DNA of 36,578 nucleotides, taken from positions 1-36,578 of IMG/VR virus record IMGVR_UViG_3300021427_000055; one strand, given 5' to 3'. Below, in pieces: positions 10,512 to 25,532 of this stretch. Every line of letters starts with the position of its first letter. Position 1 is the first letter of the stretch. A program made the translations under genes and the position numbers. A model generated the notes under the pieces. That model ran no database searches, was not told where the DNA came from, and worked only from the letters and a program-made list of their open reading frames with translations. This DNA comes from a virus (taxonomy: Duplodnaviria > Caudoviricetes).

Positions 10512-10536
10512 ATTATACGGGATGTTTATTATACGA
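10512..10536 (-). promoter_or_regulatory. 25-nt repeated promoter-like motif, copy 2
   Basis: TCGTATAATAAACATCCCGTATAAT, overlapping the stop codon of the upstream gene. Confidence 0.7.
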
Positions 10537-11041
10537 CTGTTAGATCCCCTGAAACGATACGAGCCGTTGCAGCTCTAAGCTCCTCGATGCTCAGTTTGTC
10601 GAGCTCAGCCTGAGTAATGGTTGTCGGGAGCTCGGGAACCACAGCAAGGTCTCCTCTAACTACCTTTGCTGCCTCATCTGCCATTCCCTTCGGAATAATT
10701 CCGTTGACGAATTCGGTAGCCGAAGCAGCATTCGTGCACAATTCCATGAAAAGCACAGAATATGCTTCGCTTGACTCAAACTCTTCCCGAATCTTCGTAT
10801 TCTTAACAAAGCGCTTACCATCAGCTGACCTCTGTCCATAGGAATCGAGAATAATCTTCTTGAAATGAGCGATAATAGCCTTACCATCTTCTGAAGCGAC
10901 AATTTCCTTCAAAGCTTCAGACAAGCCACCTGCCTCGCTCATCTCGAGTTCTACGATCTCGGCTTTCGAAAGATGGAAGAAGAAATCTTCAGTAACTTCC
11001 TCTTCGTTGAAGTTGGTGTAGGTGATTGACTTTCTAAGCAC
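10529..11041 (-). CDS. Conserved phage protein (170 aa)
   Basis: MLRKSITYTNFNEEEVTEDFFFHLSKAEIVELEMS...SYGQRSADGKRFVK pattern, GTG start with GGAGG RBS. Function unclear. Confidence 0.8.
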   Translation of the reverse strand: MLRKSITYTNFNEEEVTEDFFFHLSKAEIVELEMSEAGGLSEALKEIVASEDGKAIIAHFKKIILDSYGQRSADGKRFVKNTKIREEFESSEAYSVLFMELCTNAASATEFVNGIIPKGMADEAAKVVRGDLAVVPELPTTITQAELDKLSIEELRAATARIVSGDLTVV

Positions 11042-12246: not shown

Positions 12247-12314
12247 AAAAAAAATAGAGGGGCTGTAGCATCGGCTACAGCTCTATCTCCATCGTAAGAT
12301 GGAAATATTCCTCT
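12247..12314 (-). ncRNA. Candidate small structured RNA 2 (three-way junction, protein-free cassette)
   Basis: Follows motif copy 3. Closing stem AATAGAGG/CCTCTATT, hairpins TCCATC/GATGGA and GCTGTAGC/GCTACAGC, then T8. Confidence 0.55.
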
Positions 12315-12339
12315 ATTAAATAGTATGTTTTTTCTGCGA
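12315..12339 (-). promoter_or_regulatory. 25-nt repeated promoter-like motif, copy 3
   Basis: TCGCAGAAAAAACATACTATTTAAT. Confidence 0.75.
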
Positions 12340-12342
12340 GGT

Positions 12343-12418
12343 GTTGAGGGGTAGTTCCTACTAGGCGGGCTAATCCACCCGAGGTGATACTTAATCCATT
12401 CGGCCACTACCCCTCAAC
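12343..12418. repeat. 13-bp perfect inverted repeat enclosing 50 nt
   Basis: GTTGAGGGGTAGT (12343-12355) / ACTACCCCTCAAC (12406-12418). Confidence 0.7.
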
Positions 12419-12428
12419 TTTTATAGAT

Positions 12429-12518
12429 CTATCTCTTCCACCATCTCGGATCAGGCATTCCGGCGTAAAACCATCCGCCAATACCGCCGATCATTAGTCC
12501 GAGCAGTATACCAGGCAT
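12429..12518 (-). CDS. Small TM peptide (29 aa)
   Basis: Manual translation MPGILLGLMIGGIGGWFYAGMPDPRWWKR, with GAGGTG RBS. Confidence 0.6.
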   Translation of the reverse strand: MPGILLGLMIGGIGGWFYAGMPDPRWWKR

Positions 12519-12525
12519 TTCACCT

Positions 12526-12621
12526 CTAATACAGTAGAAGGATTGGCAGGACGATGAGCACGAAGAAGAATCCAAGAATCAGGAATACAGCTTCACGCGG
12601 AGTAGGCCAACGCCAGGTCAT
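12526..12621 (-). CDS. Small TM peptide (31 aa)
   Basis: Manual translation MTWRWPTPREAVFLILGFFFVLIVLPILLLY. ATGA overlap with the upstream stop. Confidence 0.65.
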   Translation of the reverse strand: MTWRWPTPREAVFLILGFFFVLIVLPILLLY

Positions 12622-13109
12622 AGTGCTGTCCCCCAAGCATGATAGCCATCACCCCGGAGACGAATCCAAACCTCCGGAGTCAAGGCAAATGGTAGTGGCT
12701 CACCGATCCAGGTGAACTTCCCCTCAGTGAATCGCTTCCATGACCACTTCCCATTCCACTGAACTTCGTTGTCGATGTGACCAGAGAAGACCCACAGACC
12801 GAACTGGTAAGTCGATCGATGAGAGTTCACCAGTACAATCTGCGTCCCATTCCAACAGAAGTCATCGATGGTCAGTCGATAGCGCCATACGACGATACCA
12901 ACCGAAGAGCGTCGAATTCGTTGTACTGTGAAAGGAGTTGCCCAACACTTGACCACTGCGACATTGGCAAGTGAGAGAGCCTGATTGACTTGAACTGCAG
13001 GCTTCTTTGAAGCCGTGGCTCCTGCTGATGCATCAGTTGCCCAGACGGTCAGGGCTGAGAAAACGCATAGCAAGGTAATAATCCATTTCTGACGGCTGGT
13101 AATAGTCAC
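12618..13109 (-). CDS. Secreted protein (signal peptide, Trp-rich beta domain, about 163 aa)
   Basis: Likely GTG start at 13109 after GGGAGG. MTITSRQKWIITLLCVFSALTVWATDASA resembles a Sec signal, and the mature part has two Cys. Confidence 0.75.
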   Translation of the reverse strand: MTITSRQKWIITLLCVFSALTVWATDASAGATASKKPAVQVNQALSLANVAVVKCWATPFTVQRIRRSSVGIVVWRYRLTIDDFCWNGTQIVLVNSHRSTYQFGLWVFSGHIDNEVQWNGKWSWKRFTEGKFTWIGEPLPFALTPEVWIRLRGDGYHAWGTAL

Positions 13110-13614
13110 GATCCTCCCTTTGAGCTTCGACAACATAGCGAAACTTAGCTGACCCATCAGGCCAGCACATCACTAGAAATACTCGCTCATCTTCGAGCGT
13201 TGGTTCAAAAGCTTTCCAGGCATTCGCCCTTACTTTGCTATGACCAACTACACGATAAATATAGCGGCCGTAGGGCATGCGTATAGTAATACGTGCCCCT
13301 CGTTTTAGCTCATCGATCTCGTTGAAGACGCCGTGTGGTCTCCCATACATCGACGTCACATTGTGTCCGAATAAGACAATATTACCGCCCATACCCGGAC
13401 TGTACGTACTTGGTAGGTGGCCCACCGCTTGGTCAAGCACACGCTTGCCTGACCCACGTGGTGGTAATTGCCGAATTGGAGCACGGATGTCAATTGCTGG
13501 AATAGCAACCGTGCCATACTTTGCGGCTGTGGGAGGCGGTGTCCACTCAACCACCGCGGGAGCCACGGCGGGGGCAACCGAGAAGGTCACCGCCGCCATG
13601 AACTCCGCGAACAT
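13033..13614 (-). CDS. Sortase (class D/E-like cysteine transpeptidase)
   Basis: Likely start MFAEFMAA at 13614. Motifs GTVAIPAIDI, AVGHLPSTYSPGMGGNIVLFGH (His), FNEIDELKRG, RMPYGRYIYRV, FLVMCWP (Cys), AKFRYVVEA (Arg). Confidence 0.88.
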   Translation of the reverse strand: MFAEFMAAVTFSVAPAVAPAVVEWTPPPTAAKYGTVAIPAIDIRAPIRQLPPRGSGKRVLDQAVGHLPSTYSPGMGGNIVLFGHNVTSMYGRPHGVFNEIDELKRGARITIRMPYGRYIYRVVGHSKVRANAWKAFEPTLEDERVFLVMCWPDGSAKFRYVVEAQREDRDYYQPSEMDYYLAMRFLSPDRLGN

Positions 13615-13627
13615 CGAGATCCTCTCT

Positions 13628-14308
13628 TTAGAGCGACTCGGGCAGATCACCCGACGGCGTCGTGTTTGACGTCGAAGGGACAACTACCGGAGGATTGGAA
13701 GTCTCGTCTCCACCATCATCCGGATCGTCGGGATCATCATCGGGCGGAGGCGGCTCTTCGTCACAACTCTCCGCATCGAACGAATCGAAAGTGACCTCGA
13801 ACTCAGACTGACCAATCAGCAAGAATCCGAGCAGAGTCTTGGCCGTAGCGGTAATCTGCACCGTCTGGCCTGGGGCGACTGTGCCCTCGACATCGTAATC
13901 GATAGCGTCGAGTCGCTCGAACAGAAGCGCAGCAACGCCCTGATTCTCACAGTCGGGCTGGTCTGCCGTGACTCCAGCGAAGACCTCGACCGCAGGCGGA
14001 TCAGGCGGCTCACAGACACCGAAACTATCGTTCTCATGTCCAGCGTTTGGCGTACCGTTCTCGTTGAAGTGACCCGCGGGACCGACGATGGCCACGATCG
14101 GGATGTTCAGATCGACGTAGTTGGCGGGATCACTTGCAAGACCCGCAACGTGACAGATGTCGAAGTGCGTGCTGTTCGGGATGCACTCCTCCTGGAACAA
14201 CGTCTCTCCACCCTCACACCCGTCGTCGGGCGGCGGCTGAGCCGACGCAGTAGCGACGCCGATGACCACAAGGATCATCATCGCAGCCATGGCCAAGTAC
14301 TTAATCAT
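13628..14308 (-). CDS. Secreted acidic/Pro-rich surface protein, putative sortase substrate (226 aa)
   Basis: ATG at 14308 with GAAGGAG RBS. Signal peptide ending ATASA, Cys/His domain, small beta domain, Asp/Pro/Thr linker, C-terminus GDLPESL-stop, 13 nt upstream of the sortase start. Confidence 0.8.
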   Translation of the reverse strand: MIKYLAMAAMMILVVIGVATASAQPPPDDGCEGGETLFQEECIPNSTHFDICHVAGLASDPANYVDLNIPIVAIVGPAGHFNENGTPNAGHENDSFGVCEPPDPPAVEVFAGVTADQPDCENQGVAALLFERLDAIDYDVEGTVAPGQTVQITATAKTLLGFLLIGQSEFEVTFDSFDAESCDEEPPPPDDDPDDPDDGGDETSNPPVVVPSTSNTTPSGDLPESL

Positions 14309-14343
14309 TTCTTCTCCTTCTCGAATTATGGATATGGTGGATA

Positions 14344-14389
14344 AAGATTTGCAAGTTTGACCTGTGCACAGACCCTTATTGCAAATCTT
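14344..14389. repeat. 11-bp inverted repeat with central palindrome
   Basis: AAGATTTGCAA/TTGCAAATCTT enclosing CTGTGCACAG, in the leader of the substrate gene. Confidence 0.6.
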
Positions 14390-14399
14390 AATATATACC

Positions 14400-14540
14400 A
14401 ACCCACCGCTGGACTATCCTGGCGCGAGCCAATATGCCCGCCACTTTCCTCTGCCAAGGCGGACGATTTGTTATGATGTCGGTGGCAGCCTGACATCTTT
14501 TTGTCGTCCCTCAATAAGCAGGATAGTCCAACGCTAGGTT
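14400..14540 (-). ncRNA. Candidate 141-nt structured RNA / leader element
   Basis: About 22-bp closing stem (core TGGACTATCCTG/CAGGATAGTCCA, G-U pairs on the minus strand). Inner GGACGA/TCGTCC and GATGTC/GACATC. Complementary loops CTGCCA/TGGCAG. Confidence 0.55.
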
Positions 14541-14543
14541 GAT

Positions 14544-14599
14544 AAAAAAAAGAATACAGCGAGATTTAGTTGTATAATCTCACATTCGGTATGTATTCT
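14544..14599 (-). ncRNA. Candidate small structured RNA 3 (protein-free cassette)
   Basis: Follows motif copy 4. AGAATACA/TGTATTCT closing stem, inner GTGAGATT/AATCTCGC, then T8. Confidence 0.5.
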
Positions 14600-14624
14600 A
14601 TTAAAGGATATGTTTTTCTTGCGA
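14600..14624 (-). promoter_or_regulatory. 25-nt repeated promoter-like motif, copy 4
   Basis: TCGCAAGAAAAACATATCCTTTAAT. Confidence 0.75.
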
Positions 14625-14630
14625 ACAGCA

Positions 14631-14670: not shown

Positions 14671-14811
14671 CTACTGGACGGCAGCGGTCTTTCGACCCTT
14701 GAGGACGCTCCACACGGTGGTGGTCACCTTGGTCAGGACGCGGTCGACGATGACAGCGAGGACCCAGGCGAACACGACGGTAAGGATGCCCTTCAAAATC
14801 GAGTTCAACAT
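14671..14811 (-). CDS. Cassette-encoded small membrane protein (46 aa)
   Basis: Not in the ORF track. MLNSILKGILTVVFAWVLAVIVDRVLTKVTTTVWSVLKGRKTAAVQ, AAGGAGG RBS, between motif copy 5 and terminator copy 2. Confidence 0.8.
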   Translation of the reverse strand: MLNSILKGILTVVFAWVLAVIVDRVLTKVTTTVWSVLKGRKTAAVQ

Positions 14812-14838: not shown

Positions 14839-14863
14839 ATTATACACCGTGTTATTTCTGCGA
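14839..14863 (-). promoter_or_regulatory. 25-nt repeated promoter-like motif, copy 5
   Basis: TCGCAGAAATAACACGGTGTATAAT. Confidence 0.75.
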
Positions 14864-14893
14864 GTATAAGGCTAATATCTAATCTTTATTCCA

Positions 14894-15273: not shown

Positions 15274-15297
15274 TGCGGCTCCTTTAGTAGACTTTCT

Positions 15298-15322
15298 ATT
15301 AAAGGCAATGTTTTACTCGCGA
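15298..15322 (-). promoter_or_regulatory. 25-nt repeated promoter-like motif, copy 6
   Basis: TCGCGAGTAAAACATTGCCTTTAAT, overlapping the upstream stop codon. Confidence 0.7.
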
Positions 15323-15543
15323 TCAGCCTCTTCTTCAGTAGTTACAACCTTAAATATAACTTCGTTTCTATATGCAATCATTTCGGGATCTTCGCCTAGT
15401 TCCAGAGAAAATAATGTCTTATCTTCAGTATGAGTCACTTGGATAATTCCACTATAGCTCTTTCTACTCACTAACCACCTTTGAATGATGATACCAGTAA
15501 ATAACCCTACATAAAATGCAGCTGCCAAATATACCCAAATCAT
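15313..15543 (-). CDS. Small membrane-anchored protein (76 aa)
   Basis: N-terminal TM helix. ATGA overlap with the Gp37-like gene. Confidence 0.75.
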   Translation of the reverse strand: MIWVYLAAAFYVGLFTGIIIQRWLVSRKSYSGIIQVTHTEDKTLFSLELGEDPEMIAYRNEVIFKVVTTEEEADRE

Positions 15544-23448: not shown

Positions 23449-23778
23449 TTATAAACGAGTATCCAGCACAATAACTGCTAGATCAAATGCGGCATTTGTT
23501 AAAGAAGCGTCGTATAATCTTGTAGCCACAAGTACTACACCAGGACCAACGCTTGTAATTGTATAGAAAACACGACTATCTGTAGGACCATTCCCAATAG
23601 CATTAATTACAGTAAGTCGAGGATCGAAATATACTTCATATCTACCTGGATCAGAAGTTCTAACTGATCGCCATGGCGTACCGTCTGAAAAAACACCGCT
23701 TGAATCACCTGCCGCTGGGATTTGATCAACGGTGTGAATGGTATACACACGTTTAGAATCTCTCTGTTCGCTCCTCAT
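23449..23778 (-). CDS. Hypothetical tail-associated protein (109 aa)
   Basis: Coupled (ATGA) to the LamG gene, beta-rich. Confidence 0.65.
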   Translation of the reverse strand: MRSEQRDSKRVYTIHTVDQIPAAGDSSGVFSDGTPWRSVRTSDPGRYEVYFDPRLTVINAIGNGPTDSRVFYTITSVGPGVVLVATRLYDASLTNAAFDLAVIVLDTRL

Positions 23779-25532
23779 GCTGCCACCGTCAATTCCACCT
23801 GATGTACACTATCCAAAGTATCAAATATAGCTAGAAGATCTGTAGAAGACATTGCTTCAATATGATCTCCTGGATTCTTTGGTGAAAGTCCAAGCAATTG
23901 TCCACTCTTAGTATAAAGCTTAAGAATATCTTCGGGCGTCAATGCTGCACCAATAACGAAAACCGCATCGACAAGCCCAGTGAATTTACTAGCTGCGGCA
24001 AGATTTTGTCCAATACAGAACTTACTTGCTCCACCGAGTGTAATTGAATTCAAAACTGTAGATAACCCAACACAACGACCATCTAGATAAAGCTTACGCT
24101 TATCGCCTTCAATTGCAGCATTATCATGTACTGCTACAACAAAATGCCACAATCCATCAGTGATATTGGGTCCAATAAATGCATCGGCACCAGAACCACT
24201 GCCAATTTCGCCACCCAAAGATACGTAAATTCGTGTATCGTTTGAACTACTCGTGGTTCCCCAAGTAACTACCCACATATTAACACCAGTAAGATTTACT
24301 ACTTTCAACCAACAACCAAATGAATGTGTAGCGGTTCCAGATGGTAAACCTGAATCTGTAGATGTTAAAGCTGAGGCACCACCAAGATAAAAGGAATTAC
24401 CAGGAGTACCATCAGCTCCTCCTGCAGCAACCGCAGTGCCTACATTAGTTAGATCGCCAGTTGCTCCTTGAGAACCTGCATTTCCAAGCGATCCGGCTGA
24501 GAAATTGTACAAACGTAGAGGCGTAGAAGGAAAATCTCCAGTAACTAGAGCAGCGCCCTTACGCCCTCGTTTAACATTAAGATTAACTCTTCCAGGAATT
24601 GCAGCTAATGTATGAGGAATTTTAGCACAATAAAGATTACGAACCTGATCTTCGGTAAGAATATCATTCGTTATAAAAGCATTTGATACACGACCGAAAT
24701 TAGGCTCGCTTGCATTTGTGGAACCATCTGCCCCGAAACCACCAATATTTAACGGCGCATTAGCTCCAAAGATCAAACTACTAGTTAGCATAGTTGTTTC
24801 GACTACCCCATCAACATAAACGCGACGCAAAAGACCATCATATGTCATAACCGCGAAATGCCAACGATTATCACAGACATCCGACTGACCTTGTACATCA
24901 CTAAAAGTTGTACCCTGAGGGCTAACTCGAGAGTAAATTTTGTTAGTTGATGAAATTGAAAATGCCCAACCTAGATTTGGAGTATTAACTCGTTTTGTAA
25001 TTAGAGATTGAATTGATCCTTTATGGGGTGTTCTAAACCAACAACCAATCGATCCAACTTTAATACGAAACGGATCGCTAGCACCCGTATCCGCAATATA
25101 AAGTGCTTGGCCCACTGCTCCAGTAAACTGTGCAGCGGTACCTGCAGCCCCATTGATTCCTGACGCAAATGTTACAGTACCTTTGTTGGTTAGAGTTCGT
25201 CCATTACCACTTGAATCTGATGTACTTGCAAGATTCCACAAAGCAACCGGAGCACTAAGTCCAAGATCTGTGAAATCAGCTAGAGTCAGCTGTCGACCGG
25301 CACGAATCTGATTGATTATTCCAACATCAGACACAGGAACGGCCGAAATAACATCAAGATCTGAGCCTACAGGACCCTGAGGACCTGTGGGCCCAACCAC
25401 ACTACCAGCATTAATCTGGCCGCCATCATGTTTAGTAAGAATTAAATTCCCACCAACAACGTCGCCATCGACAACCGACGCTGCTTCAATTTCCAACATT
25501 CGTTCAGCCGTAAGGCCAGTAACTGTAGTCAT
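23775..25532 (-). CDS. Minor tail / receptor-binding protein with tandem LamG (ConA-like) domains
   Basis: Short GPTGPQGP collagen-like stretch, then two repeats: DNRWHFAVMTYDG..VYVDG and DGLWHFVVAVHD..LYLDG. Confidence 0.85.
   Translation of the reverse strand: MTTVTGLTAERMLEIEAASVVDGDVVGGNLILTKHDGGQINAGSVVGPTGPQGPVGSDLDVISAVPVSDVGIINQIRAGRQLTLADFTDLGLSAPVALWNLASTSDSSGNGRTLTNKGTVTFASGINGAAGTAAQFTGAVGQALYIADTGASDPFRIKVGSIGCWFRTPHKGSIQSLITKRVNTPNLGWAFSISSTNKIYSRVSPQGTTFSDVQGQSDVCDNRWHFAVMTYDGLLRRVYVDGVVETTMLTSSLIFGANAPLNIGGFGADGSTNASEPNFGRVSNAFITNDILTEDQVRNLYCAKIPHTLAAIPGRVNLNVKRGRKGAALVTGDFPSTPLRLYNFSAGSLGNAGSQGATGDLTNVGTAVAAGGADGTPGNSFYLGGASALTSTDSGLPSGTATHSFGCWLKVVNLTGVNMWVVTWGTTSSSNDTRIYVSLGGEIGSGSGADAFIGPNITDGLWHFVVAVHDNAAIEGDKRKLYLDGRCVGLSTVLNSITLGGASKFCIGQNLAAASKFTGLVDAVFVIGAALTPEDILKLYTKSGQLLGLSPKNPGDHIEAMSSTDLLAIFDTLDSVHQVELTVAA

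Follow-up and report, generated by a model that had tools for sequence, protein, structure and literature searches.

A phage-borne sortase and its anchorless secreted partner: a two-gene cassette probably taken from Gaiellales

How could a sortase act on a secreted protein whose chain stops directly after the sorting motif? In textbook sorting, a membrane helix and a charged tail hold the substrate for the enzyme. The question arises from a two-gene cassette in IMG/VR virus record IMGVR_UViG_3300021427_000055 (36,578 nucleotides, the whole of which is called the window here), in which the gene for a secreted partner protein ending in LPESL is followed by the gene for a sortase. LPESL falls short of a canonical sorting signal: Gly, hydrophobic segment and charged tail are all missing, and the stop codon comes directly after the motif. 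Because the partner has neither membrane anchor nor charged tail, the usual anchoring route cannot apply unchanged. The first-pass annotation had proposed a sortase beside its own secreted substrate, with which the phage would decorate the infected cell wall; the pairing stands and is conserved in bacteria, whereas the usual anchoring does not fit. Judged from sequence, the carrier is likely a lytic actinobacterial-type phage with a sortase taken from Gaiellales, and it probably attaches a protein of its own to the wall of the infected cell through a rare route that needs no anchor. We put the probability at about 0.55 that the two genes are a module from a Gaiellales host whose sortase cuts LPES-L and joins the partner to wall amines without membrane-anchored sorting.

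The enzyme is a sortase by profile and by catalytic residues. It scores 73.8 bits against Pfam PF04203 (cut-off 26.6) and 52.7 bits against TIGR01076 (cut-off 39.35), and in alignments its LFGH, VMCWP and KFRYVV stretches fall on the segments that carry the catalytic His, Cys and Arg in sortases of solved structure (13 matching PDB sequences). The three residues, His84, Cys150 and Arg159, are invariant in 85/85 aligned rows, which bears out the earlier description of a triad in canonical order. The earlier suggestion of a profile check gave a divided result, since the Pfam model is passed and the class-specific models are not. The best-scoring class models are those of classes E and D, represented by NF033747, NF033746, NF058671 and Streptomyces coelicolor SrtE1, and the phage enzyme shares their His-Cys-Arg order; its scores are 47.8 against a cut-off of 160 bits for the class E model NF033747 (relatives reach at most 104), 57 against 165 for NF033746 and 59.5 against 140 for NF058671, so that all cut-offs are missed by about 80-110 bits. 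Among the 7 NCBIfam matches with E of 0.1 or less, no class B model appeared. A further likeness to classes E and D lies in related cassettes, whose endings are LAxT-type motifs (LAYT, LAHT, LAFT). Unlike these classes, the phage sortase has no long membrane-anchored N-terminal part and its partner has no Gly, helix or tail; the class E substrate motif LAXTG is likewise absent from the phage partner. Canonical sorting signals and sortase classes follow the definitions in PMC11231552. A structure model of the sortase from a 12-row alignment had a mean pLDDT of 43 and was not used, and a predicted complex between the enzyme and the C-terminal 30 residues of the partner scored 0.16 against a mark of 0.32 and counts neither way.

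Structurally, the sortase is compact. A hydrophobic segment, strong in housekeeping relatives, stands about 100-150 residues before the catalytic His there and 52-82 residues before it in compact sortases. The hydrophobic stretch of the phage enzyme is short, with a 13-residue hydropathy mean of 1.86, and sortases of the phage branch start M-x-A-E-hydrophobic, without a basic residue. Textbook cleavable signal peptides occur on the sortases of relatives forming one branch (L075, L076 and L150-L159). The phage sortase is putatively exported and released.

The partner carries a clearer export signal, judged by inspection and hydropathy: a basic residue, a hydrophobic core (19-residue mean 2.31) and an A-S-A site. 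Nothing hydrophobic or charged follows LPESL, and the best 19-residue hydropathy at the C-terminus is -0.04. The mature protein is acidic, with a single Lys. Its head of about 50 residues follows the pattern CHVAG..GHF..AGHE.D..G.C, with invariant Cys, three His and one Asp; that it binds metal is a guess. A predicted structure of residues 24-186 (pLDDT 90, pTM 0.57) has a small head followed by a beta-sandwich that weakly resembles FN3/Ig-type domains (best Z 4.3), and 7 of 33 aligned members match the divergent InlB B-repeat below its cut-off. Fold searches with the model, run against PDB and viral libraries, gave no match with E of 0.001 or less; the head fold is not called new, because the head domain (model residues 1-81) was barely tested in these searches. 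As modelled, the partner has the build of a displayed surface protein. P0017, a protein 57% identical to it that ends LPRTL and comes from a 69.6-kb contig, was not found in IMG/VR.

Comparison across bacteria indicates that the anchorless ending belongs to a family. At 12/12 close loci whose sortase start is intact, the preceding gene, 3-14 nt away, closes with LPFTL, LPFTH, LPFTR or LPFSL plus stop, and both domains of the phage partner also occur in partners of bacterial cassettes. A second profile matched in 18/401 genomes, 16 of which had the ending of motif, one residue and stop on first pass; of the other two, L160 has the ending with a gap of about 400 nt, and L165 is a housekeeping enzyme with a canonical LPFTG substrate. 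After removal of duplicate cores and of loci with less than 650 nt upstream, 126 loci were scored, 32 classed as compact and 94 as long. A real N-terminal hydrophobic stretch is present in 26 compact sortases, namely this phage and 25 bacterial or metagenomic copies (those from genomes mostly Gaiellales), and all 26 (25 excluding the phage) have an anchorless upstream neighbour; the other six are parsing failures or truncated copies. Among the long sortases, 3 have true anchorless neighbours, 1 flag (L060) proved false, 6 have a canonical substrate and 84 have neither. With clustering at 70% identity, an anchorless neighbour accompanies 11/14 compact and 2/31 long clusters (Fisher p 2.4e-6); the p value is only descriptive, because the border of 88 residues was chosen after the data were seen, the loci were found by similarity to the same profiles, and kin share traits. 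By chance, motif plus one residue plus stop ends 5/2761 frames (0.18%).

Since all 26 compact sortases sit behind this ending, the missing anchor reads as a conserved trait of the family and not as decay. The last residue of the 29 true endings, counted by eye, is Leu in 13, Pro in 12, His in 2, Arg in 1, Lys in 1 and Gly in none; LAxT-Pro endings occur only in other branches, and Ser in the motif is also found in bacterial partners L004, L034 and L035. Two ways around the missing anchor were considered and rejected. A read-through or frameshift fusion restoring an anchor does not agree with a stop-to-start gap of 3, 4, 5, 13 or 14 nt and a frame relation that differs among members, and head-to-tail ligation through an N-terminal Gly does not agree with predicted mature N-termini that vary. 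One locus, L126 (G213:C1), has its partner frameshifted in the stalk with the motif in the shifted frame, so that partner and compact sortase read as a 530-residue frame, either an assembly error or a real fusion; L130, from genome G263, is a control row on which no conclusion depends. A group of actinobacterial modules has lost the membrane helix and charged tail as well as the Gly, apparently more than once. A literature search on sortases of Gaiellales, Thermoleophilia and actinobacteriophages and on truncated or anchorless signals, covering few subscription papers, turned up no account of this group.

Several lines of evidence point to a bacterial origin. Its closest relatives among sortases (58-66% identity, 11 clusters) trace to genomes from an order that includes a Gaiellaceae metagenome-assembled genome, and copies in Gaiellales genomes are 60-65% identical to the phage enzyme. 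Close copies (E <1e-45) are accessory, since they occur in only 4/401 sampled genomes of that order; all 5 carrier genomes that were checked have other sortases as well. In a tree of 38 rows, whose bootstrap was not fully settled, the phage sortase pairs with P0005 (100/99) and the pair is sister to L032 plus P0006 (97/95) within one bacterial clade, that of Gaiellales; a quick tree of 115 rows agrees. At the DNA level, the phage sortase is 70.6% identical to L032 over 354 nt. The phage sortase has a third-codon GC of 0.51 and the partner one of 0.66; the corresponding values are 0.81-0.87 for bacterial copies of the sortase and 0.34-0.52 for core genes of the phage. This pattern fits capture from a Gaiellales host followed by drift, and would make a Gaiellales bacterium the host of the phage. 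P0005 is probably a second member of the lineage. Separately, P0088, P0092, P0106, P0138, P0213 and P0005 are compact sortases with lower-GC residue use on short contigs, candidates for further phage-borne copies.

The carrier is a partial siphovirus (36.6 kb, rated 62% complete). A scan of 42 window proteins revealed terminase, portal, capsid-protease, two major tail proteins, tape measure and primase-polymerase. The terminase is 82-83% identical to those of Streptomyces Bingvirus-type and Gordonia phages, and gene order matches Streptomyces phage ClubPenguin. Cluster BI/DJ-type actinobacteriophages (Bingvirus, ClubPenguin, Gordonia phage Duffington) thus share with the window the terminase, the gene order and two major tail genes, as well as intergenic repeats and small membrane genes past the tail module. 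Cluster DJ phages are described as lytic, with GC much under that of the host, many small membrane genes and intergenic repeats past the tape measure gene (PMC9753669, PMC12859696). The window differs from cultured phages of this type in its likely Gaiellales host and in its cassette: they gave no match to the partner, and GenBank phages gave just one weak, unannotated match to the sortase. The earlier remark was that no integrase or repressor is visible; none appeared among the 42 proteins scanned of this incomplete genome, and tyrosine integrase PF00589 was found in 0/2 partial sister records (45-kb and 16-kb contigs). The phage records are incomplete (62% and 77%), but a lytic lifestyle is likely. 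At 7/7 related phage loci, two of them near-identical, the flanking genes are kept, the cassette is absent and other genes, unrelated among the relatives, fill the slot. By this comparison, the cassette was inserted into a variable phage slot.

Other data speak to the authenticity of the locus. In two further IMG/VR contigs, probably not independent, the cassette sits at the same position with 99.9% identity. A sibling strain 92-96% identical is present in run X2 of another study. There, cassette and flanking phage genes have similar depth; a single contig joins the 3' end of the sortase gene to the third gene and the first small peptide, others cover the partner and flanks, and none spans the whole. 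Among the codon differences listed, the third gene has 38 silent and 5 changed and the partner 9 silent and 4 changed. The sortase core has two, one at Cys150, both silent. Where the sortase tail overlaps the third gene, 4/5 differences change the residue, so that the tail looks like a by-product of the overlap. The cassette reads as no chimera, because a sibling strain from another study shows mostly silent changes. Contigs from runs X1 and X3 that skip the cassette match just 22-36 letters per side and were not used.

Two published systems come close, and both lower the novelty: phage modules of sortase and substrate are already known from a preprint, and an anchorless substrate from streptococci. 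AbpA of oral streptococci (Liang et al. 2016, PMC4974636) ends LPKTSAVK without an anchor, yet it is wall-anchored and laddered by its own SrtB, with part leaking to the medium. The two systems share a two-gene locus with the substrate first, a dedicated accessory sortase, and a secreted substrate ending in a sortase motif and a very short tail without hydrophobic or charged segment. They differ in that AbpA (LPKT-SAVK) needs four residues past a Thr that Ser cannot replace, and in that its chromosomally encoded enzyme is, by description, a membrane protein of class B whose termini are long, whereas the phage pair combines a one-residue tail with a compact D/E-like enzyme. The other system comprises 24 huge gut phages that carry SrtB and fully anchored substrates (bioRxiv 10.64898/2026.10.24.761521). 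These modules share a triad-intact phage sortase, a candidate substrate directly upstream and a proposed display on the host wall, which is predicted there. They are of class B, Bacillota-related and in genomes of more than 200 kb, with full signals (PXTG, hydrophobic segment, charged tail), whereas the present phage, of about 60 kb, is of actinobacterial type and both its proteins are without a membrane anchor.

Mechanistically, the favored reading would run as follows. Both proteins would be exported through Sec, the partner by its clear signal peptide and the enzyme by a weak one. The sortase would then attack the partner between Ser and the last Leu of LPESL, forming a thioacyl intermediate at LPES and freeing one residue. 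Transfer to free amines of the infected cell's wall would follow, with peptidoglycan as the acceptor and perhaps some polymer formation, as for AbpA. Once anchored, the partner would display its small His/Cys head on a beta-sandwich spacer and a flexible stalk. By analogy with known cases, anchor-free chemistry is plausible: SrtA puts anchorless amidated LPXTG peptides into the mature wall without lipid II (PMC9026250). The benefit to the phage, a coat on the infected cell that hides receptors or alters sticking, is the weakest step and a tentative one; the first-pass annotation had named receptor masking or superinfection exclusion, adhesion, and competition for host sortase substrates as candidate roles.

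A number of observations weigh against wall attachment by this route. SrtA may be inhibited where the motif runs straight into a free carboxyl, and concentrations of 0.5-1 mM were required for anchorless peptides (PMC4723074), for which reasons a one-residue free tail calls for an adapted enzyme. AbpA anchoring is abolished by a Thr-to-Ser change or by loss of the last three residues AVK (PMC4974636), and the phage partner has Ser and a one-residue tail; 12/29 anchorless partners end in Pro, an awkward leaving group. Export of the sortase is uncertain, because its N-terminus has no basic residue and bears a conserved Glu. The sibling contigs of X2 leave LPESL and His84 uncovered. Carriage by phages is rare: four scans of viruses, made with the sortase or with alignments of it, yielded this phage and no other (L169, from the last scan, was spurious). 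Finally, a lytic-type phage has little obvious time to profit from a wall coat.

Alternative explanations differ in what they accept. A bolder version, in which a released sortase clips one non-Gly residue and staples a soluble protein in trans onto the mature wall or other proteins, is unlikely. It is quite unlikely, too, that the pair is active with another protein as acceptor, the partner being polymerised or stapled to a third secreted protein or to released virions. Laddering of AbpA by its own SrtB would suit this, as would the 16-22 Lys/Arg in the last 60 residues of many bacterial partners, which are possible acceptors, and a soluble enzyme not kept beside lipid II; yet the mature phage partner is acidic with its single Lys, no pilin motif or conserved N-terminal Gly was seen, and the third gene lies outside the bacterial module. 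Less probable again is a passenger from the host, sitting in a variable slot with little or no gain to the phage. The cassette is indeed found in one phage lineage only, with all seven related loci lacking it and holding unrelated genes, but its third-codon GC has shifted from 0.81-0.87 to 0.51 with the triad and 65% of residues preserved, most changes in the sibling strain are silent, and P0005 keeps the triad at 66% identity.

There is a slim chance that the enzyme stays in the cytoplasm, or trims the tail without ligation, and that the partner is simply secreted. The lack of a basic n-region, the moderate hydrophobicity, the free C-terminal carboxyl and the non-Gly leaving residue all lean this way; clear cleavable signal peptides in other branches of the same arrangement lean the other, as do the partner's paired cysteines and signal peptide, from which it follows that the partner matures outside, and a strict L-P-x-T/S at fixed distance from the stop would fit ligation better than trimming. 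The partner could also be a decoy or client of the host housekeeping sortase, the phage enzyme mattering little. Such a role would agree with 16 other viral loci that have the head domain and no sortase nearby, some with a full LPFTG or LPATD anchor, and with host housekeeping sortases that adjoin LPFTG/LPFSG substrates; against it, the tail-less ending in bacteria always goes with a compact sortase in the scored loci and the streptococcal housekeeping enzyme did not handle AbpA, which makes the idea very improbable. Hardly credible is an artefact, be it a mis-assembled host fragment or a decayed or frameshifted canonical signal: although local GC is 55% against about 45% around and no single contig of an independent run spans the cassette, the two further IMG/VR contigs, the sibling with even depth, a cassette GC far under the donors' 68-71% and the varying stop-to-start gap, which leaves no shared read-through or frameshift to restore an anchor, all contradict it.

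The 16 viral loci with the head domain (L080-L095) form a subject of their own. They belong to unrelated phages and encode a secreted His/Cys head, uncovered by Pfam families, on a Pro/Thr stalk, with endings that vary from a full LPFTG or LPATD anchor to a clipped motif (LPETK, LLPPTR) or a terminal G-x-G; these are likely phage surface proteins that use host sortases. No sortase lies within the fetched flanks, and whole-record searches of 7 of them plus 3 relatives found none (0/10). Twelve members of the head-domain family (P0020, P0024, P0025, P0027, P0028, P0030, P0031, P0034, P0035, L082, L085, L091) have a Lys-rich stalk ending G-S/N/Q/L-G-stop, possibly a different anchor-free attachment tag. 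P0041 unites the head with an LPKAG motif and a divergent sortase domain in one chain and might be a form that processes itself. The partner at L089:3017-3895 has a PPTD-type motif at its end; 3 nt past the stop begins, in frame, a short hydrophobic gene with an Arg-Arg end, possibly making up a split sorting signal.

The cassette stands at the head of five minus-strand genes, all of them real, which fill the entire interval 12429-14308 (Table 1). They had been described as one five-gene sortase operon, a reading that lost its support because just the first two genes travel together. The third protein, beta-rich by sequence with two conserved Cys, belongs to a small unnamed family with four relatives at 62-93%; this family occurs in 0/251 Gaiellales genomes searched, and no bacterial cassette has a member next to it. 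Related phage loci contain no match to the two membrane peptides, and atlas searches gave no family name for the partner or the third protein. Sequence comparison, then, ties neither the third secreted gene nor the membrane peptides to the sortase.

Table 1. Features of the cassette and its surroundings, in window coordinates
Feature	Position	Strand	Details
Secreted partner	13628..14308	-	226 aa; signal peptide MIKY..ASA/Q; ends GDLPESL-stop
Partner architecture	13628..14308	-	His/Cys head, beta-sandwich spacer domain, acidic Pro/Ser/Thr stalk, terminal LPESL
Sorting-like motif LPESL + stop codon	13628..13645	-	without Gly, membrane helix or charged tail
Ribosome-binding site AGAGAGGA	13620..13627	-	in the 13-nt gap from partner stop to sortase ATG
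Compact sortase	13033..13614	-	193 aa; ATG at 13614; D/E-like, under every class cut-off
Sortase triad codons		-	His84 13363-13365; Cys150 13165-13167; Arg159 13138-13140
Sortase tail, residues 168-193		-	absent from relatives; overlaps next gene
Second secreted protein (third gene)	12618..13109	-	163 aa, signal peptide; 77-nt overlap with sortase 3' end
31-aa hydrophobic membrane peptide	12526..12621	-	no tie to sortase found
29-aa hydrophobic membrane peptide	12429..12518	-	no tie to sortase found
Sigma-70-like promoter match TTGCAA-18-CATAAT	14325..14354	-	directly ahead of partner gene
Phage intergenic repeat copy	14596..14629	.	upstream of cassette; families D1, D2
Phage intergenic repeat, next copy	12311..12344	.	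downstream of the five genes; families D1, D2

The promoter match is weak, because the region has 4 sigma-70-like sites against 2.8 expected by chance. Two inverted repeats (14341-14392 and 14396-14544) lie between the phage repeat and this site and may be an operator or an RNA structure. Further copies of the intergenic repeat lie at 14839-14864, at 15294-15327 and near 2678; the repeat, TCGCA..AATA on the minus strand, stands ahead of small genes, as described for cluster DJ phages. Directly upstream of the cassette, a 46-aa hydrophobic gene (14671-14811) has a third-codon GC of 0.87, resembling a high-GC host, and is possibly a separate recent pick-up. Elsewhere, a 585-aa tail-associated protein (23775-25532) with two laminin-G/concanavalin-type domains and a third-codon GC of 0.23 is likely a receptor-binding protein of separate origin. 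The product of 10529-11041 has a Pfam match to tail assembly chaperone PF23803, though its gene is well away from those of the tail; according to PMC12859696, phages of cluster DJ have no candidate for such a chaperone. The window contains no tRNA genes.

If the proposed route works, the pair would allow a test, with just two genes, of how a sortase captures a substrate that nothing tethers, and would reveal a phage route to rewrite the host surface. It would also give a host clue for phages of uncultured Gaiellales, with the donor lineage of the cassette still traceable in phage DNA, and possibly a protein-ligation tool that accepts a free C-terminus. Should the system be fully untethered, an infected cell might cover its own surface, neighbouring cells or released virions, and a widespread kind of Gaiellales sortase borrowed by phages would be a ligase that takes native C-termini.

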